Source of the DNA: Escherichia phage HMD-9
Sequence record: PV287714.1
Length of the DNA: 64,000 bases
Reading direction: 5' to 3' (one strand)
Part shown: piece after piece, positions 2,244-63,827 of the stretch
Position numbering within the stretch: position 1 is the first letter of the stretch
Layout: every line of letters starts with the position of its first letter
Position numbers and translations under genes: made by a program
Notes under the pieces: model-generated
What the model saw: only the letters and a program-made list of their open reading frames with translations
The model's database searches: none
Told to the model about the DNA's origin: nothing

Positions 2244-2273
2244 ATTATACCACATCCTTGTGGTAAAGTAAAC
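2244..2273 (-). promoter_or_regulatory. T4-type early promoter (GTTTAC -35, 18-bp spacer, TATAAT -10)
   Basis: Reverse complement reads GTTTACtttaccacaaggatgtggTATAAT; near-identical copy at 46938-46967. Confidence 0.6.
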
Positions 2274-4093
2274 TACTGGCTCATCCATTCTTTACGAAGG
2301 TCAGCATTATCTCCCATGAGCATTTCAAAAAGCTCTTTCCAATTCTCAGGAAGTTTAACAACATCATATACTGGATTTTGAATCATCTCACGATATTCAG
2401 ATTTTTCCAAAGAGCCAAGTCCCTTAATATAACGGATGCTATGTTTAGGTAGAGCATCTTTAGCACTCTCATATTCAGCGACTGTATAAAACCATTCTTG
2501 TTTTTTACCGACCTGAGCGATGATTACAGGAGTTTTGACAAAGCGAATTCTTCCTTGTTCAAACAGTTCTGGCCAATTACTAAAAAATCCGAGCAAAGAA
2601 GGATAAATGCTTCCTAGACCATCATGGTCAGCATCGGTCATAATAGCAATATTATGATAATTCAAGTTTTCGGCTTTTTCACCAAGAACTAATCCAGTGA
2701 TTGCGCAAATATCAAACAGTTCTTTGTTTTTAAGCATATCAGCATATGACATACCCCAACTGTTGAGAACTTTACCACGCAATGGATAACCGCCATGAAG
2801 TTCTTTATCACGAACATCAATAAGATATCCAATAGCCGAATCACCCTCAGTCAAGAAAAGAGTAGTGTCAGCATCTTTACCACAAAGATTCGCTTTAATA
2901 TGTTTATGAACCTTAGCTTTAGAAACCTTTTTAGCTGCTTTAGTTTCTGCTGCTTTTTCTGCCGCCAATTTACGAGCCAAGGCAGCTTCAATAATTGGCA
3001 TTAAAATTGCTTCATTATTTAAAATAGCACGTGAAATCTTTTTAGCATCAAGCTGAATATGACTACGAATTTCACCAAATGGAGAAGTCAGACGCTCTTT
3101 AGTTTGAGAGTCAAATCGCATGTTTTTCATATCACGAACAAACATAACGATAGTCAAACATTCTTTAACACGTGCTTTAGTTACGTCAATTTTAAATTTA
3201 CGTTTGATTTGTGGAATAAGGTCTTCACAAATATCATCCATAACACAATCAATATGATGGCCACCATTCTTAGTATGAATGTTATTGACGTATGTTAATT
3301 GACGAAAACCATCCGGCGAACGACCAACCGCAATAGAACAGTTTTCTTGTTCTTGAACGATAGCATGCTCATCATATTGGCGTGCATATTTCTTAAAATT
3401 ACCCTGAACCTTTTTACCATTAAAGGTAAATTGAATATCAGGATAAACTACTGCAAGTGTCTGGAGACGATCCAGTGTAATGTCAAGATAAACTTGAGAC
3501 AGCTCATTAGTTTCAAATGACATAAAATCAGGAATGAAAGTAACGCGAGTTCCTTTCCATTTTCCAGGAATATCTTCCCACGATTTATTTTCCATGCCGT
3601 TTGAACAACGAACTACAATATTATTTTGACCGTCGCCAGTTTCACCGACAAACATCACAGAAAAAATGTTAGTTAAACTAGAGCCAACACCGTTCATACC
3701 GCCAGTGACGCGTTCTTTGTCATCACCGAAGTTACCACCTGCTTTTGGAATAGTCCAGGCAGCAACAGGACCAGGAATTTCTTCACCGGTAGGTGTTTTA
3801 ACCATCGCCTGTGGAATACCACGACCGTTATCTTCAACTGTTACTTGATTGTTTTTGATAGTAACATTAATTTTATTTGCGAATTTAAACTTAGTACGAA
3901 TACCTTCATCTACTGAGTTATCGATAATTTCATCAATAAGCTTAACAAGACCAGGTACATACTGAACACTTTCCCATTTACCAAACAGAAAGCGCTCATG
4001 CATTTCATTAGCAGAAGAACCAATGTACATGCCGCTACGCTTTTTGATATGTTCAATATCGCTCAGAATTTTAATTTCATTCTTAATCATCAC
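2273..4093 (-). CDS. 39: DNA topoisomerase II large subunit gp39, unsplit 606-aa form (GyrB-like ATPase plus the part that is gene 60 in T4)
   Basis: 606-aa track ORF; N-terminus MMIKNEIKILSDIEHIKKRSGMYIGS and EDNGRGIP GyrB motifs; continuous through the region split by gene 60 in T4. Confidence 0.9.
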   Translation of the reverse strand: MMIKNEIKILSDIEHIKKRSGMYIGSSANEMHERFLFGKWESVQYVPGLVKLIDEIIDNSVDEGIRTKFKFANKINVTIKNNQVTVEDNGRGIPQAMVKTPTGEEIPGPVAAWTIPKAGGNFGDDKERVTGGMNGVGSSLTNIFSVMFVGETGDGQNNIVVRCSNGMENKSWEDIPGKWKGTRVTFIPDFMSFETNELSQVYLDITLDRLQTLAVVYPDIQFTFNGKKVQGNFKKYARQYDEHAIVQEQENCSIAVGRSPDGFRQLTYVNNIHTKNGGHHIDCVMDDICEDLIPQIKRKFKIDVTKARVKECLTIVMFVRDMKNMRFDSQTKERLTSPFGEIRSHIQLDAKKISRAILNNEAILMPIIEAALARKLAAEKAAETKAAKKVSKAKVHKHIKANLCGKDADTTLFLTEGDSAIGYLIDVRDKELHGGYPLRGKVLNSWGMSYADMLKNKELFDICAITGLVLGEKAENLNYHNIAIMTDADHDGLGSIYPSLLGFFSNWPELFEQGRIRFVKTPVIIAQVGKKQEWFYTVAEYESAKDALPKHSIRYIKGLGSLEKSEYREMIQNPVYDVVKLPENWKELFEMLMGDNADLRKEWMSQ

Positions 4094-4142
4094 TTATCCT
4101 CGTTTGGTTTCGGGAATATTATACTCCAATAATCATAAAGCT

Positions 4143-4160
4143 AAAGGCCCGAAGGCCTTT
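4143..4160 (-). terminator. GC stem-loop with UUCG tetraloop (intercistronic hairpin/terminator) followed by TTGGAGTATAAT and gene 39 RBS
   Basis: aaaggcc-cgaa-ggccttt on plus strand, flanked by T run; same hairpin class recurs at least 8 times in window. Confidence 0.5.
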
Positions 4161-4432
4161 TATTTAAAACGAATAGTTGAATCCTTAAAGAACAGCCCAG
4201 AACATACAGTTCCTTCTACTTTCTGCCCGGTAGGTCCAATAGCACGAAATCCAGTGTGTTGGAAATCATTTTCAGAGCAACCGAACCAATTATATCCAGT
4301 GATTTCAATATTAGTAAAACCACTTGAAGACAAAACTTTGGTTGCATTATCAGCATCAGTACATCCTATTAAAGACACTGCTAATACTAATGCTGCGATA
4401 GAACGATTAACATATTTCATAATTTCACTCAA
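4160..4432 (-). CDS. predicted lipoprotein
   Basis: 90-aa track ORF; signal peptide and lipobox (LVLAVSLIGC). Confidence 0.6.
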   Translation of the reverse strand: MSEIMKYVNRSIAALVLAVSLIGCTDADNATKVLSSSGFTNIEITGYNWFGCSENDFQHTGFRAIGPTGQKVEGTVCSGLFFKDSTIRFK

Positions 4433-4802
4433 ATTTAATGGCTTGAAGAAGACTAATAACTCTCAAGCGGCTTCTTTCATCTTTAACTGTAAAGGAAAGA
4501 GGGTCACCAGATTTCATAGTGATAGTGCATCCAAAATCAAAATTTTCGGGAACTTCTTCGAAGAAGTCAAATTCTTCAGCATAAATTAGAACATTACTCT
4601 GCATACTGTGAAGAATTTTTCCGTCATTTCCAGATGCTGTACTAATCATCGTAACATTATGGCCTTTCATATCTTCAACGATAAATTCGCTTGTAGATAT
4701 TACAGCATTAATAGAACCATTCCTATAAATAGCAGACATTAGATATTTCTTTTCTTCGCCTTCGCGAATACGATATTTCTTACCGATTTTAAACATAATC
4801 AC
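4425..4802 (-). CDS. hypothetical early protein
   Basis: 125-aa track ORF in operon context; no recognisable motif. Confidence 0.5.
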   Translation of the reverse strand: MIMFKIGKKYRIREGEEKKYLMSAIYRNGSINAVISTSEFIVEDMKGHNVTMISTASGNDGKILHSMQSNVLIYAEEFDFFEEVPENFDFGCTITMKSGDPLSFTVKDERSRLRVISLLQAIKFE

Positions 4803-4975
4803 CCTTTAAGTAAGTCGTAAAATCCACCATTCACATGCTTAGGAGCGGAAACTAACCGAATAGCAATCCGATGACAATCAGGACATACATCAGTATCCCT
4901 TTCAGAAATTTTCTTGATTTTTTCGTATTCTTTTGCGCAGTCTTTGGATTGACATTTATAATCATAAAGAGGCAT
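4799..4975 (-). CDS. small zinc-ribbon protein (CxxC...CxxC), 58 aa
   Basis: ORF below track cutoff: MPLYDYKCQSKDC...CPDCH; AAGGAA SD; stop overlaps next gene start. Confidence 0.45.
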   Translation of the reverse strand: MPLYDYKCQSKDCAKEYEKIKKISERDTDVCPDCHRIAIRLVSAPKHVNGGFYDLLKG

Positions 4976-4977
4976 AA

Positions 4978-5397
4978 TTATTCCTTAAAGTGAGCTTTCA
5001 ACATCTGATACAAAGACCATGCTTGTTCATTATTTTCAATAGTAACTTTCATTACCGGGAATTCTGTGAAATCTTCTATTTGTTCTTGCTCTTCCTGCTC
5101 TTGTTCTTCAGCAGCCTGATATGGATTTTCAACTTCATCAAAGAACCCAGCTTCGTTAGTAGAGAGCCAGATAAAGTTTTCATCAAGGATATCACCGCCG
5201 GCACAACGTTTGAGTACACCTATGGATGTCATAATTTTAGTAGGACGCCCAAGATAATCAGCATCTAAAATTTTAAAAGGTTCCATACCTAAACGTCGTG
5301 CATAGATTCCGTTATCAGTATGGTCTTTAATAAAATTTTCTTGAGCTTGTTTATTTTTAAATTGATACCATTTATTAACTTCAAATTTAATAGCCAT
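4978..5397 (-). CDS. hypothetical acidic protein with EQ-repeat (goF-like position)
   Basis: 139-aa track ORF; [10 protein letters not shown] tract; position matches goF in T4 gene order (memory only). Confidence 0.55.
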
Positions 5398-5612
5398 TAA
5401 TAAATTTCCTTCCAGTAAGTTGTGCCATCTTCAGTAATTTCACGAAATACACCATAAATTGGCTGTTTATCACCGACTTTCTCATACACATAAACCGAAG
5501 TCAAGTGAGTAAACTTGCTAGTATGTTCCTTTTGAACTACTACCAAATCTGGATCGAATAATACATCTTCAAATTCATCATTAGTGCAATTCTGAACAAT
5601 TTTACGTTTCAT
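5397..5612 (-). CDS. hypothetical 71-aa protein (cef-like position)
   Basis: 71-aa track ORF adjacent to motB; size and position match T4 cef from memory. Confidence 0.5.
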
Positions 5613-5702
5613 TACAATTTCCTCATTAATTGAACATTGGAGCGATGCGTTTCAGAAGAGTATCAACACCTTTAGCGAATTTCCATTTTATTCTCCAAGT
5701 TG

Positions 5703-5745
5703 TTTTCTGTATCAGTAGTTGATATTGATATAGTACCATAATCAA
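5703..5745 (-). repeat. 13-bp perfect inverted repeat forming a leader stem-loop (PeSL-like element)
   Basis: atcagtagttgat at 5703-5715 and atcaactactgat at 5733-5745; shares gtagttgat core with elements at 24231, 49900, 51337, 63781. Confidence 0.6.
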
Positions 5746-5773
5746 CTACTGATGTATATAGTTTTATGAAAAA
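5745..5773 (-). promoter_or_regulatory. early promoter variant (GTTTAA -35, TATACA -10)
   Basis: Reverse complement GTTTAAattttttcataaaactaTATACA immediately upstream of the inverted repeat. Confidence 0.45.
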
Positions 5774-5782
5774 ATTTAAACT

Positions 5783-6271
5783 TTATGCATAGAGAGCATT
5801 GCTATAGTGTTTAATCCAACTTTCAGGAATGACTTTGTATGTTCCTAAAAATACCACATTGTACAGCTTAACACCATCTTCTACCCATTGATCGGTAATG
5901 TATCCACACATAGCACGAGTATAAACAACCCTTCCATCGTCTTTGATAAAGTTAAATTCACAAGGAGCAACGAACTTGATAGCTTGACCGAGTTTCCACT
6001 TAAAGTCTACACCTACATGCGAAGTATCAATCGTTTCAATTCCTTTAGCAGGAACAGCTTTCAAAAACGCAGATTCAAGAAATTTCGCGCGAACATAACC
6101 AAACTGAGGTTTAGACTTTCCATCTTTAGGAATGATACGAACTTTTACTTCAGAATCTTCATCTTTAACGCCATGTTTAAGCTGAATGCTTACAATTTCG
6201 ACCAATTTTCCTGCTGCTTTAGAACGGGATTTATCAGATACACGAGCAATTTCACCAATATTAATAATCAT
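5783..6271 (-). CDS. motB: MotB-like early protein
   Basis: 162-aa track ORF, matches T4 MotB size and N-terminus from memory. Confidence 0.7.
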   Translation of the reverse strand: MIINIGEIARVSDKSRSKAAGKLVEIVSIQLKHGVKDEDSEVKVRIIPKDGKSKPQFGYVRAKFLESAFLKAVPAKGIETIDTSHVGVDFKWKLGQAIKFVAPCEFNFIKDDGRVVYTRAMCGYITDQWVEDGVKLYNVVFLGTYKVIPESWIKHYSNALYA

Positions 6272-6347
6272 AGTTATCTCTCACTTGTTAAAAAGATTTT
6301 ATACTCCACAGGACCATTATACTCTGGTCCCAAGAGTTTGTAAACTA

Positions 6348-6887
6348 TTAATTCAAAATAGCTACCACTGCACTACGAGGTACTACGCTAAAATCGCCTG
6401 CATGAACAACGTTCAGAAGTTCAACACCATCTTCAATCCATTGGTCAGTTACCCAACCACAGACCGAAATAAATGGGGTCTTAATAGCTACTGCACGAGT
6501 CAAAAGGTCAGTAGGATCAACTTCTTTGAAGAGGATAAGCTCTGCTTCAAAGACTATAGTTTTAATTACTTCATCATTATCTAAGCGTTGTGCTCGAATC
6601 ACGTAAGCTTTATTCTTATCATGCCAGTTACTTTTTGAAAAGCTTTTAACCACAAACTCGCCTTCACCAAAGACATTAGTCAATGCTTTATAACCTAAAT
6701 TTAGTTCAGTAGTTTTAATTTCAGTTTCAACCAGTTTGTAGGTTTTGCCGATTTCAATAGCGGTAGTCATAGTAGGTTCCTTAATTTCCAGTGGTTTAAC
6801 AGGGCATACATAAGTGCTTACAACATCAAAATCAATCAGTTTAGCTACCGGATTTGGCGTGTATTCAGGATTATAATTAAATTTCAT
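6348..6887 (-). CDS. MotB paralogue
   Basis: 179-aa track ORF; C-terminal block GWVTDQWIEDGVELLNVVHAG parallels GYITDQWVEDGVKLYNVVFLG of neighbouring MotB. Confidence 0.65.
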   Translation of the reverse strand: MKFNYNPEYTPNPVAKLIDFDVVSTYVCPVKPLEIKEPTMTTAIEIGKTYKLVETEIKTTELNLGYKALTNVFGEGEFVVKSFSKSNWHDKNKAYVIRAQRLDNDEVIKTIVFEAELILFKEVDPTDLLTRAVAIKTPFISVCGWVTDQWIEDGVELLNVVHAGDFSVVPRSAVVAILN

Positions 6888-6889
6888 AA

Positions 6890-7390
6890 TTATCTCATTT
6901 CAACAAAATCTATGAGTTCAGCATGCGATTTGCGGAACATTACTTGGTGCCCGCCAATGATAACTTCATCTTCAGGAACTTCGTATACAGCGAGATAAAA
7001 TCCTTTAGAAGATAATTCTTCCCGCTCTTCTCGTGTGAACCATCTCATCATATCATATTCACTAGCGAAAGCAAAATGATAAAGAGCTATAAACCATCCT
7101 GGAATATGATATTCTACTCCAACATAATCTTTCTTGAACTTAGTATTAATTACTATATTAGCGTTTTTAACTAATAGTTTATCTTCGTGTGGTAAAGGAA
7201 TTCTTTTATTATTATCGCTATGATGCATAAAATTAGGTCTATCATAACCTACGTGTAATAACCACTCTTCGCTCCATGAATCTATTATACTCCTGTACGG
7301 CGTTATTTGAACACAAAGATTTCGACGTATTGTTATAGCATCTTCATAATTAAGAATACTAAAAGATGATTCAACACGATAAATTTTCAT
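6890..7390 (-). CDS. hypothetical early protein, 166 aa
   Basis: Track ORF 6890-7429 trimmed to ATG at 7388-7390 (GAGGA SD); the longer start lies inside the promoter. Confidence 0.55.
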   Translation of the reverse strand: MKIYRVESSFSILNYEDAITIRRNLCVQITPYRSIIDSWSEEWLLHVGYDRPNFMHHSDNNKRIPLPHEDKLLVKNANIVINTKFKKDYVGVEYHIPGWFIALYHFAFASEYDMMRWFTREEREELSSKGFYLAVYEVPEDEVIIGGHQVMFRKSHAELIDFVEMR

Positions 7391-7417
7391 TTTATTATCC
7401 TCAGTAGCTATGGTGTT

Positions 7418-7447
7418 ATAATACCACAACTAACCGAGGAAGTAAAC
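7418..7447 (-). promoter_or_regulatory. T4-type early promoter
   Basis: Reverse complement GTTTACttcctcggttagttgtggTATTAT. Confidence 0.55.
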
Positions 7448-7453
7448 AACTTT

Positions 7454-8137
7454 TTATCGTTTTGTTGGAAGAGAAAGAGGATCGCACTCTTCCTCTGATG
7501 GAGCATCTTCAAGACCCATAGCATATCGCAAAGCATACTTCATCATCAGGATGTCTTTCGCACAGTCATGAATAGAATCATGTGCAACGAATCCATCTAA
7601 AGTTCCCTTTGGAAGAGGACATGTGGTCATATCACGAACAAGCAGAAGTGCTTCAATTCTGGTACGAATATCACGCTGATTCCAGAATTTACATGGTTCT
7701 AACTTAAATGTGTCAAGTTCATTCTCAGAAACGCCATTAAGACGTTGAATATCGCGAATGAGATCGATTAAAATTGGAAAATCAAACGACATTCCACGGC
7801 ACCAGCCTTGAGATTTCCAAGGATCGATGTTATGTGCATTGATGTAATCATTAAATTTTACAATACCATCGATAGTGCTTACATCTTCATCTGATGGCGC
7901 AATATTTTTTCGAGCTTCAGGAGACTGATTTTTCCACCATTCGATAGTGCTTTTAGTAAAAAGACGATGTCCTTTTTGGCTTTTTAAATCAAACTTGATT
8001 TTAATGCCGCGTGAAACTAATTCATCGAATGTTTCAACTACTTCTGGGTTAGGGTCAAAGGCAATAACAGCCAAATCAATAACAGCTGCCTTTTCACCGC
8101 TTCCCATTGTTTCAAAATCTATAATAAAATCAAACAT
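7454..8137 (-). CDS. dexA: exonuclease A (DexA)
   Basis: 227-aa track ORF, N-terminus MFDFIIDFETMG, DEDD-type exonuclease; matches T4 DexA length. Confidence 0.9.
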   Translation of the reverse strand: MFDFIIDFETMGSGEKAAVIDLAVIAFDPNPEVVETFDELVSRGIKIKFDLKSQKGHRLFTKSTIEWWKNQSPEARKNIAPSDEDVSTIDGIVKFNDYINAHNIDPWKSQGWCRGMSFDFPILIDLIRDIQRLNGVSENELDTFKLEPCKFWNQRDIRTRIEALLLVRDMTTCPLPKGTLDGFVAHDSIHDCAKDILMMKYALRYAMGLEDAPSEEECDPLSLPTKR

Positions 8138-8412
8138 TAAATTTTCCTCGCTAAATCGCGAATTTGACCTACAGTATAATCTTGGATATAAACTTTATTA
8201 ATGGGCTCATCAATAAATTTTGTCATAGATTCAATATCTTTTTGTATCTCTTCAAGACTGTATACTATCTTTAAAGCTTTTTCGCGAATAGTAACATTAT
8301 CAGGTCCTGAATTTTCTTGAATGACAGCTTTAACATTTGCCACAAGAGATTTAAACTGATGCAAACTTAATTCAATCATTAATAACCGCCTTATAAAGAT
8401 GGCTAATTTCAC
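8137..8412 (-). CDS. hypothetical protein, member of tandem paralogue pair
   Basis: 91-aa track ORF; similar spacing pattern to adjacent 86-aa ORF. Confidence 0.5.
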   Translation of the reverse strand: MKLAIFIRRLLMIELSLHQFKSLVANVKAVIQENSGPDNVTIREKALKIVYSLEEIQKDIESMTKFIDEPINKVYIQDYTVGQIRDLARKI

Positions 8413-8632
8413 CTAAAACATAATCACTGATTGTAACAGTTTTCACTTCACCGCAAAAGAATTCTAATGCAATCAAATCTCGTTCAATTTCTTCCAATTG
8501 AAGCATTAACTTACTAGACTCAATTTTTACAGTTTCATAATTTTTACTGTAAGATATTTCATAAATTTCGCTTACTTTATCTTGAAGCAGATAAAACTGG
8601 TCTTTAGTTATTTCCACGAATAGCTTCCTCAA
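8372..8632 (-). CDS. hypothetical protein, member of tandem paralogue pair
   Basis: 86-aa track ORF overlapping downstream gene. Confidence 0.5.
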   Translation of the reverse strand: MRKLFVEITKDQFYLLQDKVSEIYEISYSKNYETVKIESSKLMLQLEEIERDLIALEFFCGEVKTVTISDYVLGEISHLYKAVIND

Positions 8633-11732: not shown

Positions 11733-12364
11733 TCAACTACCTCAATATCATACACTTTAAATGTTCCAAACGAATCGTGTAATTTTTCTTTTGAAATAGA
11801 AGTTATTTTATACTTTCCAATTGGAATCATCCATTCTTGTTCACGCACAATCATCATTAAGTTATCAGTACGTTCTGAATCTAATCCATCAGTATCTTCA
11901 TATGTATACTTAAACTCAGTATTAGGAGAAGAAAGTATAATATCGCTGATATGGTCAGAGTAATTAAAAGCTTTATCAGTTTTTAAGCGAAGTACTATTT
12001 CAGTGAAATATTCAGCATAAGAAAAAGAACACGCTGTATGCAAACTAGTAGTAAATGAATCTACTCTGTTCGTTGAAAACACTTCTCCAACTTGTAAATC
12101 TTTAATGAGTTCTTTTGTCGATTTTGATATACCACGATATAGCTGATAAGGCGATTTAGTTAAATGCTTTTTAACGATTTTATTCAACTGCCGATGAAGA
12201 GCTTCATTCTTTTTGGCTTCCATACATTGCCAAAGAACTGACTGCTCAAAGTCAGTAAATTTTTCACAGACTTTTTTATACATATCATATTGAAAATCGA
12301 CACTTTCAGCTTTTATAGATAACTGTTCAACATCTGCAAGATTAATAATCATGATAGCCTCCAT
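11729..12364 (-). CDS. modB: ADP-ribosyltransferase ModB
   Basis: 211-aa track ORF, paralogous to ModA, 4-nt overlap. Confidence 0.8.
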   Translation of the reverse strand: MEAIMIINLADVEQLSIKAESVDFQYDMYKKVCEKFTDFEQSVLWQCMEAKKNEALHRQLNKIVKKHLTKSPYQLYRGISKSTKELIKDLQVGEVFSTNRVDSFTTSLHTACSFSYAEYFTEIVLRLKTDKAFNYSDHISDIILSSPNTEFKYTYEDTDGLDSERTDNLMMIVREQEWMIPIGKYKITSISKEKLHDSFGTFKVYDIEVVE

Positions 12365-12378
12365 ATACTTCAGAAGCT

Positions 12379-12408
12379 ATCATATCATTGTTAGGAAGGA
12401 AAGTAAAC
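12379..12408 (-). promoter_or_regulatory. T4-type early promoter
   Basis: Reverse complement GTTTACtttccttcctaacaatgaTATGAT. Confidence 0.55.
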
Positions 12409-18287: not shown

Positions 18288-18316
18288 AACAATCTCCTCA
18301 TTTAACCAACAAGACT

Positions 18317-18346
18317 ACTATACCATAGTCTTGTCAGCTTGTAAAC
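18317..18346 (-). promoter_or_regulatory. T4-type early promoter
   Basis: Reverse complement GTTTACaagctgacaagactatggTATAGT. Confidence 0.55.
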
Positions 18347-24230: not shown

Positions 24231-24280
24231 TATCAGTAGTTGATAGTTGTATAGTACCACAGAGGAACGGTCTTGTAAAC
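24231..24280 (-). promoter_or_regulatory. PeSL-type early promoter cassette
   Basis: tatcagtagttgatagttgtatagtaccacagaggaacggtcttgtaaac; about 45 bp nearly identical to copy at 49900-49944. Confidence 0.6.
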
Positions 24281-49886: not shown

Positions 49887-49899
49887 TTTGTGTTCCTCC

Positions 49900-49944
49900 G
49901 TAGTTGATAGTTGTATAGTACCACAGAGGAACAGTCTTGTAAAC
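49900..49944 (-). promoter_or_regulatory. PeSL-type early promoter cassette
   Basis: gtagttgatagttgtatagtaccacagaggaacagtcttgtaaac; one mismatch over about 45 bp vs copy at 24231. Confidence 0.6.
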
Positions 49945-51336: not shown

Positions 51337-51386
51337 TATCAGTAGTTGATAGTTGTATAGTACCATAAAGCTTTATGCTTGTAAAC
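51337..51386 (-). promoter_or_regulatory. PeSL-type early promoter cassette
   Basis: tatcagtagttgatagttgtatagtacca...cttgtaaac; first 29 bp identical to copy at 24231. Confidence 0.6.
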
Positions 51387-51411
51387 CGTTTTGTGAAAAA
51401 ATTTTTGAAAT

Positions 51412-51439
51412 AAAAAAGGGGACCTCTAGGGCCCCCTTT
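51412..51439 (-). terminator. rho-independent terminator
   Basis: ggggacc-tcta-gggcccc hairpin flanked by A run and T run. Confidence 0.55.
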
Positions 51440-51447
51440 GTGTTGAT

Positions 51448-54617: not shown

Positions 54618-54752
54618 AATTACATACTCCTTTGAATAATATCAATAATGTTGTTCACTAGATTATAAGTAAACATTGGGTGATAATATTGAATCATCAC
54701 ATACACAACAAACAAAATTTTCATTCTCTTCTCCTTGGCAGTTGACAAGATT

Positions 54753-54782
54753 ACTATATCATAACCTTGCCAACTTGTAAAC
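54753..54782 (-). promoter_or_regulatory. T4-type early promoter
   Basis: Reverse complement GTTTACaagttggcaaggttatgaTATAGT. Confidence 0.55.
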
Positions 54783-54947
54783 CATTAAATGACGTTTTCA
54801 ATAAAATTCTGAAGCTTTGTGTGAGCATCAACCATGATTTTCATTTCTTCCTTTGCGAAAGCTGTACCTCTTTCACGAGAAGAATACTCATAGTCAGAAA
54901 CTGCATTAGCGTATTCTTCAATTAGCTTCATTAAAAACATCTGCTTT

Positions 54948-59716: not shown

Positions 59717-59743
59717 GTTATTCTCCTCTTAACTGATAGAAAA

Positions 59744-59773
59744 ATTATACTACAGTCAAGAGGAAAAGTAAAC
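59744..59773 (-). promoter_or_regulatory. T4-type early promoter for regB
   Basis: Reverse complement GTTTACttttcctcttgactgtagTATAAT. Confidence 0.6.
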
Positions 59774-63770: not shown

Positions 63771-63780
63771 AATTTCCTCC

Positions 63781-63827
63781 AAGTAGTTGATGAATGTATA
63801 GTATCAAAACCCTTGGAGGAAGTAAAC
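63781..63827 (-). promoter_or_regulatory. early promoter with PeSL-like leader upstream of denV
   Basis: Reverse complement GTTTACttcctccaagggttttgaTACTAT followed by leader catcaactactt. Confidence 0.55.

Follow-up and report, generated by a model that had tools for sequence, protein, structure and literature searches.

A probable PeSL-type early promoter cassette between motB and cef of a T4-like phage, with the -10 element inside a hairpin that may act on read-through RNA

The DNA analysed here (the window) is a 64,000-nt stretch of Escherichia phage HMD-9 (PV287714.1), a T4-like phage (Tequatrovirus) that is 97.4% identical to T4 and 99.5% identical to phage LH2 over the approximately 1 kb surrounding the feature under study. 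This feature is an inverted repeat on the minus strand, located in the spacer between motB, the gene upstream of it, and cef (Table 1). The motB stop codon (5785-5783) is followed by the A/T-rich tract AAATTTTTTCATAAAAC, and on the cef side of the repeat come a Shine-Dalgarno (SD) sequence, GGAG, 14 nt 3' of the hairpin and outside its stem, and an ATG (5686-5684). In the window, the 89-aa ORF that begins at this ATG has been cut down to ATG GAA ATT CGC TAA (5686-5672; MEIR*) and the old C-terminal coding part; compared with T4, there is one A fewer in the run after the ATG of the vestigial ORF, which leaves the four-codon ORF. The SD of cef itself (5624-5618) is also outside the hairpin. A 39-aa ORF with a TTG start (5626-5745) runs over the hairpin and was judged spurious; it spans the -10 element, the predicted transcription start and the cassette SD. 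Elsewhere in the window, gene 39 (topoisomerase large subunit; 2273-4093, minus strand) is a single unsplit ORF of 606 aa where T4 has 39 and 60, which makes the phage T2/T6-like in that respect.

Table 1. Features of the motB-cef spacer and hairpins at other early promoters, in positions of the 64,000-nt window
Feature	Position	Strand	Basis or remark
motB CDS, 162 aa	5783..6271	-	ORF list; 97-99% identity to T4 motB in annotated records
GTTTAA, taken as -35 in the original prediction	5776..5781	-	within the A/T-rich upstream tract; not a promoter hexamer
A/T-rich UP-like tract AAATTTTTTCATAAAAC	5761..5777	-	near-identical to AAATTTTTTCACAAAAC at the promoters with -12 at 24256 and 51362
-35 hexamer TATACA, taken as -10 in the original prediction	5753..5758	-	5 of 6 matches to T4-group TTTACW; alignment; weight matrix
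Whole stem-loop	5711..5753	-	13 bp, 2x2 internal loop, 5 bp, CUA loop
Hairpin 5' arm ATCAGTAGTTGAT	5741..5753	-	fills the -35/-10 spacer, about -30 to -18
Extended -10 TGGTACTAT (TGG + TACTAT; hexamer 5735-5730)	5730..5738	-	apical part of the hairpin
Hairpin 3' arm ATCAACTACTGAT	5711..5723	-	predicted first 13 transcribed nt
Predicted transcription start, A	5723	-	7 nt past the -10; first base of the 3' arm
Cassette Shine-Dalgarno GGAG	5693..5696	-	sequence reading; aligned with the SD of paralogous cassettes
Vestige of 89-aa ORF	5626..5686	-	comparison with T2, F13076, JY01, ECO4, D5505 and PYps14T
cef, 71 aa	5397..5612	-	first intact gene served by the hairpin-enclosed promoter
-10 inside or at the edge of a hairpin	7392-7441, 59718-59767, 54735-54784, 49887-49936	-	-17 to -24 kcal/mol
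-10 inside or at the edge of a hairpin	18291-18340, 63774-63823, 12342-12391, 6291-6340	-	-17 to -24 kcal/mol

The original prediction described a perfect 13-bp inverted repeat whose arms are separated by 17 nt. Both 13-mers were found and are fully complementary, but they lie 8 positions away from where they had been placed (5703-5715 and 5733-5745), with atcagtagttgat at 5711-5723 and atcaactactgat at 5741-5753. The repeat lengthens to 20-nt arms with 85% complementarity and 3 nt between them, forming a 43-nt hairpin. As minus-strand RNA it folds at -20.2 kcal/mol (z = -6.3), and none of 200 shuffles folds as well, in agreement with the stability that had been claimed for it. Among perfect 13-bp inverted repeats whose arms are no more than 40 nt apart, it is the only one in the 64 kb. 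It should be noted, however, that dinucleotide shuffles contain a mean of 0.15 perfect 13-bp repeats per window (roughly p = 0.1-0.15); hence, perfection alone is only mildly unusual and constitutes weak evidence. The repeat is judged non-random because the hairpin ranks eighth for stability among 50-nt windows of the minus-strand RNA across the whole 64 kb, because the repeat is invariant in hundreds of T4-like genomes, and because it occupies the same position as covarying hairpins in other genera. A comparison of positions 5300-6400 with Rfam gave no match at E <= 1.

The repeat had been placed just downstream of a promoter made up of GTTTAA (5781-5776) and TATACA (5758-5753). These strings are present in the window, but both alignment and a weight matrix argue against their being a -35/-10 pair and instead assign TATACA as the -35 hexamer of the frame TATACA-N17-TACTAT. 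The weight matrix, trained on 17 other early promoters of the window (training scores 27.4-59.6 bits), gives this frame 35.8 bits and the GTTTAA/TATACA frame -44.1 bits; among 63,935 positions of the minus strand the former ranks 16th, and the plus strand has none with so high a score. The same frame fits the published T4/PST early promoter consensus, TTTACW-N17-TAYWAT (PMC4122927), at 11 of 12 positions and carries the TGG extension as well, whereas TATACA read as a -10 lacks the conserved final T. T4 early promoters have been described as UP/-35/TGn/-10 promoters (PMC2988021), and GTTTAA aligns to the UP-like tract. The distance from GTTTAA to TATACA is 16 bp in T4, 17 bp in this phage, 18 bp in most strains and 19 bp in T2, a variation that a true promoter pair would not tolerate, while the TATACA-N17-TACTAT spacing is constant across those strains. 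A TATACA-N17-TA(C/T)TAT layout is also found in Dhakavirus. For the RB69 ortholog, an early promoter was predicted independently by Nolan et al. (Pe:6863, score 33.2; PMC1524935 supplements), and this prediction uses the same frame.

Standard sigma-70 spacing from the TACTAT hexamer predicts that transcription starts at A5723, which corresponds by coordinate conversion to position 6594 (complement) of T4 AF158101.6. A T-A(+1)-TCAA motif is conserved at this position in all genera compared. In the accessible literature, no mapped start site or 3' end was found for the motB/cef locus of T4. Rather than following the promoter, as originally proposed, the repeat wraps around the promoter core, with the -10 element in the loop. 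A plus-strand antisense promoter was rejected: TTGATA (5719-5724) and CATAAT (5737-5742) are just 12 bp apart, and the scan gave no plus-strand site.

The assignment of the promoter determines which RNAs can fold. As the predicted start is the first base of the 3' arm, the 5' arm would be absent from locally started RNA; since the 5' arm is the promoter spacer, the hairpin is expected to form only in read-through RNA from motB. Folding of the 5' UTR, which had been proposed as a check, gave a divided answer: the read-through RNA from motB folds (z = -2.8) and includes the entire hairpin, whereas the RNA from +1 to cef has no significant structure (z = +1.5). The suggestion that the repeat forms a leader hairpin shaping mRNA stability or processing therefore fails, because the promoter was misassigned and the predicted +1 leaves out the 5' arm. 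A start beyond the repeat had been named as the result that would overturn this suggestion, and A5723 comes essentially to that; the hairpin is nevertheless retained in RNA that reads through from motB. The fold of the read-through RNA also pairs the A/T tract at 5766-5776 (AAUUUUUUCAU) with the cef SD region at 5618-5628 (AUGAGGAAAUU) on the minus strand, a pairing that is impossible in RNA begun at A5723. This second pairing may merely reflect a general tendency of U-rich tracts to pair with purine-rich ribosome sites, and the length of the U-run is strain-variable.

Several promoters in the window are related to the one upstream of cef. Near-identical paralogs occur with -12 at 24256, 49920 and 51362, and these canonical promoters carry the identical TGGTACTAT. 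Exact copies of the 3'-arm 13-mer lie at 24232-24244 and 51338-51350 (minus strand), directly 3' of canonical early promoters (GTTTAC-N17-TGGTACTAT) and 5' of GGAGAATAAAATG; neither has a complementary 5' arm. Alignment of these two cassettes (24256 and 51362) with the 5723 site shows homology over the full cassette, comprising in order the A/T tract AAATTTTTTCA(T/C)AAAAC, the -35 hexamer (TATACA at the cef site versus TTTACA in the paralogs), the extended -10, the leader ATCAACTACTGATAC, the SD and the ATG. The two cassettes precede a lipoprotein-like ORF (downstream of gene 43) and a 326-aa ATPase-like ORF. The -35/-10 spacer of the promoter whose -12 is at 51362 is filled by CATAAAGCTTTATG (51364-51377), a perfect palindrome of 14 bp; upstream of this promoter, at about 51405-51440, stands a strong canonical terminator made of GGGGGCCCTAGAGGTCCCC and a T-run.

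On the minus strand, 18 sites in the window reach 20 bits or more with the weight matrix, and enclosure of the -10 in a hairpin is common among the early promoters. In addition to the cef site, this arrangement is seen at the promoters with -12 at 7423, 18322, 49920, 54758, 59749 and 63803, and likewise at the motB promoter (hairpin 6340-6291). About half of the early promoters in the window share the design, and five of its 10 most stable hairpins enclose the -10 of an early promoter. In the hairpins beginning at 7441, 59767, 49936, 63823, 12391 and 6340, the 3' arm includes the SD, so that read-through RNA would mask the SD whereas locally started RNA would not. A canonical G+C-rich terminator with a U-tract is present within 200 nt upstream of none of the seven strongly embedded promoters, compared with five of the 11 others (hypergeometric estimate, p about 0.054). 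This difference, which is only suggestive, hints that hairpin embedding and an upstream terminator are alternatives.

The combination of features at the motB-cef site corresponds to that of PeSLs. As defined for RB49 and phi1 by Arbiol et al. 2010 (PMC2839356), such a cassette combines an A/T tract with an early promoter and a stem-loop, plus the SD and ATG of the next gene. Five subclasses were distinguished according to the position of the stem-loop, the commonest being 'between -35 and -10' and 'overlapping the -10 box' (PMC2839356). PeSLs were extended to T4/PST by Comeau et al. 2014 (PMC4122927). The original prediction had called the repeat a PeSL variant, and this designation holds, as every sequence-level feature that defines the cassettes is found here. 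The site is intergenic, begins at the motB stop and consists of A/T-rich DNA; it has a sigma-70-like early promoter fitting TTTACW-N17-TAYWAT, a stable stem-loop (5753-5711) over the -10 box (5735-5730), and the SD GGAG and an ATG at its 3' end, with an ORF that is vestigial in this phage. Like other PeSLs, it exists in many copies per genome and marks a point where relatives differ by inserted or deleted genes. Two differences should be mentioned. T4/PST PeSL stem-loops, as described in PMC4122927, lie just upstream of the promoter, whereas the one at motB-cef encloses the -10. The motB-cef stem is also A/T-rich and unusually long and perfect (13 bp), while RB49 and phi1 stems pair G-tracts with C-tracts. 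Taken together, the sequence features make it highly probable that this is a PeSL-type early promoter with its -10 inside a hairpin. The motB-cef hairpin thus belongs to a described class and is not a new kind of system.

Within the genus, all T4-type relatives examined share an unchanged block from GCATAAAGTTTAAA to GGAGAATAAAATGG, while its flanks vary. Upstream of the block lies either motB or an extra MotB-like gene (F13076, JY01). Downstream, the 89-aa ORF is intact in many relatives, T2, ECO4, JY01 and F13076 among them, and reduced to a remnant after a deletion of about 210 bp in T4, D5505 and this window; in PYps14T, cef comes directly after the block. A fixed block amid changing flanks is cassette-like behaviour. 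In Salmonella phage F13076 and phage JY01, the second MotB-like gene is inserted after motB, and GCATAAAGTTTAA is found at both ends of the insertion (L012 about 355-375 and 795-815; L013 about 590-610), suggesting that recombination may have occurred via this short repeat at the 5' edge of the cassette. An IMG/VR scan with the loop sequence returned only identical T4-like copies and unrelated promoters. Since the arms never vary within Tequatrovirus, evidence of covariation comes from other genera only.

The comparison used the cef-upstream regions of nine annotated phages and of 42 IMG/VR loci, which amount to 29 different sequences. Nearly all of these have GTTTAC-N17-TG(A/T)TACTAT with a hairpin centred on the -10 and a loop formed by -13 to -10. 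A hairpin surrounds the cef -10 in Mosigvirus, Dhakavirus, Kanagawavirus, Marfavirus, Muldoonvirus, Moonvirus, Gelderlandvirus and Karamvirus, and the stems represent at least five different sequences. For instance, the 5' and 3' arms are GGGCTAT and ATAGCCC in Karamvirus and Moonvirus, GGGTTAT and ATAACCC in Gelderlandvirus, GGTCTAT and ATAGACC in RB69 (Mosigvirus), GGTGTAGG and CCTACACC in Kanagawavirus and Muldoonvirus, GGTAGGAGC and GCTCCTACC in Marfavirus, and GGTAGGGTA and TACCCTATC in Dhakavirus. With the structure fixed by position relative to the -10, 78.8% of cells in 25 of the sequences are paired, and sliding the 3' partners by 1-3 columns lowers this to 34-48%; both sides have changed in eight of the 13 pairs (44 cells), and none of 500 shuffles reached the observed pairing values. 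These figures should be read with the knowledge that the structure was derived from the same sequences and that the three innermost pairs are partly set by the promoter consensus. Counts of G.U versus A.C, which compare the two strands, stand at 13 to 18 on the fixed structure, mostly at positions outside real helices, and at 4 to 1 inside helices, compatible with action at either the RNA or the DNA level. The hairpin is probably under selection for pairing, and the cross-genus covariation, together with the place of such hairpins among the strongest structures of the window, indicates that PeSL stem-loops are so selected.

The conservation is not uniform. The T4-type hairpin has another stem, and its register is shifted by about 2.5 nt (centre at -9, compared with -11.5 in the other genera), so the covariation bears on it from a different register. 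No -10-spanning hairpin was found at the orthologous promoter of Roth19-type phages or of L066; both this absence and the difference in register count against the preferred reading of the locus given below. At one locus (L009) the hairpin is present and a good -10 is absent. The 3'-arm motif occurs without a partner in Roth19-type cef promoters (TATCAACTACTGAGGAG leader) as well as in the two paralogs, which marks it as the older, ancestral leader element and leaves the 5' arm as the lineage-specific novelty. The promoter upstream of the distant cef homolog of L066 (IMG/VR UViG_2974769608, about 241-300) has its -35 within an inverted repeat, GAGGT...ACCTC, with a T-run behind it in the spacer; this makes a terminator-like hairpin over the -35, not the -10.

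We propose, with a probability of roughly 0.6, that the motB-cef site is a PeSL promoter cassette for cef and later genes, whose hairpin acts on read-through RNA. The cassette would run from the A/T tract through the -35 TATACA, a 17-bp spacer, TGGTACTAT, the start at A5723 and the leader to GGAG and ATG, and its early promoter would serve cef and the genes behind it. Bases +1 to +13, the predicted beginning of the RNA, recur in inverted orientation and without mismatch in the spacer (-30 to -18), which places the -10 element at the top of the hairpin. A locally started RNA would carry the 3' arm alone and remain unfolded, whereas RNA from the upstream motB promoter would carry both arms and fold. 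As the fold would be confined to read-through RNA, such RNA is also the most likely target of the hairpin, which may attenuate or terminate it or may leave the motB message with a protected 3' end; as a consequence, cef expression would depend on its own promoter. Whether the hairpin insulates cef in one of these ways, by attenuation, termination or a protected 3' end, we consider an even bet. The comparisons show the promoter frame at the level of sequence, the fold, a hairpin conserved around this -10 across genera and the cassette-like behaviour, and from them the start site and the insulation are inferred. Such a role would match that proposed for PeSL stem-loops, which has been tested in one of them. 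The stem-loop was proposed to terminate or attenuate upstream transcription, and one PeSL stem-loop reduced a lacZ reporter about as much as the rrnB T1 terminator (PMC2839356). The activity tests reported there cover a few RB49 and phi1 cassettes, namely PeSL211/210 as a terminator and PeSL193/192 and PeSL206/205 as promoters; in the promoter tests, a single wild-type PeSL206/205 clone alone gave a reading.

The resemblance to an intrinsic terminator is limited. The hairpin is stable, follows the motB stop codon closely and occupies the spacer between two transcription units, and it is labelled a terminator in one GenBank record (SA20RB), where the call was made automatically by WebGeSTer. 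However, a canonical intrinsic terminator was rejected, since there is no U-tract after the hairpin (tail ACAGAAAACAAC) and the stem is not G+C-rich, with G-C in four of its 13 outer pairs. A scan of 4000-8500 for terminators found no terminator-like sites, and TransTerm called no terminator at the RB69 ortholog (PMC1524935 supplements). These points weigh against the insulating role. The same nesting is seen in RB43, a distant T4-like phage, several of whose TransTerm terminators lie wholly inside predicted early promoters, e.g., one at 3977-3995 within Pe:4005 (3955-4005) and one at 12170-12191 within Pe:12201 (PMC1524935, additional files 3 and 6).

A different mode of action on the same read-through RNA is suggested by T4 genes e, soc, 49 and I-TevI, in which a promoter lies inside a hairpin and transcripts begun there escape an inhibitory fold; the nested promoter of gene e is a late promoter (PMC3014915). 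The motB-cef site resembles these genes in having a promoter inside hairpin DNA, such that RNA from upstream folds and local RNA lacks the 5' arm. The nested promoters of soc, 49 and I-TevI are late promoters as well, and the 3' arm of these hairpins sequesters the SD or AUG; at motB-cef, by contrast, the promoter is early and the SD is not sequestered. Several sister promoters in the window do include the SD in the hairpin, as these genes do. Phage T7 offers a further comparison, its early genes being separated by RNase III processing hairpins. The motB-cef hairpin is similarly intercistronic, has about 20 paired positions with an internal loop, and could leave a protective 3' stem on the upstream message. 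In T4, however, most mRNA processing is ascribed to RegB, RNase E and RNase G (PMC3014915).

In the best-surviving alternative, the hairpin is a switch that reads transcript origin: RNA polymerase would not be stopped, and read-through RNA would be marked for a different fate, such as processing (e.g., by RNase III) or altered translation of downstream genes. The geometry is that of e, soc, 49 and I-TevI, whose local transcripts lack the 5' arm (PMC3014915), and the SD lies within the 3' arm at sister hairpins 7441-7392, 59767-59718, 49936-49887, 63823-63774 and 6340-6291. The missing U-tract fits a non-terminating role, and we infer that 13 bp, an internal loop and 5 bp approach the length of an RNase III substrate. 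Nevertheless, both SDs at the locus (5696-5693 and 5624-5618) are outside the hairpin, and the cef-upstream hairpins of other genera also stop before the SD; we consider such a switch unlikely at this site.

A second alternative, which we consider less probable still, is that the palindrome functions as DNA, double-stranded or extruded, for instance as a hot spot where recombination shuffles cassettes, or by modulating how the promoter is opened or occupied. PeSLs have been proposed as recombination sites, and one mini-circle crossover was mapped in the loop of a stem-loop (PMC2839356). In the present phage, both DNA strands fold about equally (-11.5 and -10.9 kcal/mol), and the block is the junction of indels. 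On the other hand, many orthologous stems contain sense-strand G.T pairs, which are C.A mismatches on the other strand, and sense folds are the more stable in most lineages, partly as dictated by the promoter consensus. Moreover, homologous recombination requires sequence identity, not self-complementarity, and the indels observed do not have their end points in the hairpin.

Two further explanations are very improbable. That the repeat has no function and arose as a mutational by-product, e.g., by quasi-palindrome template switching that copied the leader into the spacer, with genome similarity preserving it, would agree with the invariance of the arms within the genus, with the different ages of the two arms and with a chance expectation that is not negligible, but it does not account for the enclosure of the same -10 by different, covarying stems in at least eight genera or for the recurrence of the design at about half of the early promoters and in half of the 10 strongest hairpins of the window. 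5'-terminal hairpins do stabilise bacterial mRNAs, and the hexamer strings are present with 17-bp spacing in the window; a GTTTAA/TATACA promoter starting about 7 nt past TATACA, with both arms in a leader hairpin that controls mRNA stability or processing, is nonetheless hardly credible in view of its weight-matrix score, its variable spacing and the position of GTTTAA in the UP-like tract, and other genera have GTTTAC where TATACA stands, in the same architecture.

Having set out these alternatives, we return to the PeSL cassette acting on read-through RNA and its wider meaning. What is modestly new is that the stem at the cef promoter covaries across genera and that hairpins enclosing a promoter are so prevalent in a T4-type genome. 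More tentatively, hairpins that enclose the -10 could be a general, selected device for telling RNAs apart by their start point, a possibility that we regard as rather doubtful. If it is true, RNA started upstream would fold at each gene boundary and then be stopped, trimmed or, where the SD is in the 3' arm, translationally silenced, while locally started RNA would remain open; the late-promoter trick of e, soc and 49 would then extend to about half of the early promoters, and the cef-upstream hairpin would be a conserved functional RNA element, not a recombination scar. The practical value of the analysis lies in a corrected reading of hairpins and hexamers in T4-like genomes: a strong hairpin near promoter-like hexamers should not be taken for a leader or a plain terminator, because the promoter can sit inside it. 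Hence, in T4-like genomes, one segment of DNA may give folded or unfolded RNA depending on where transcription originates.
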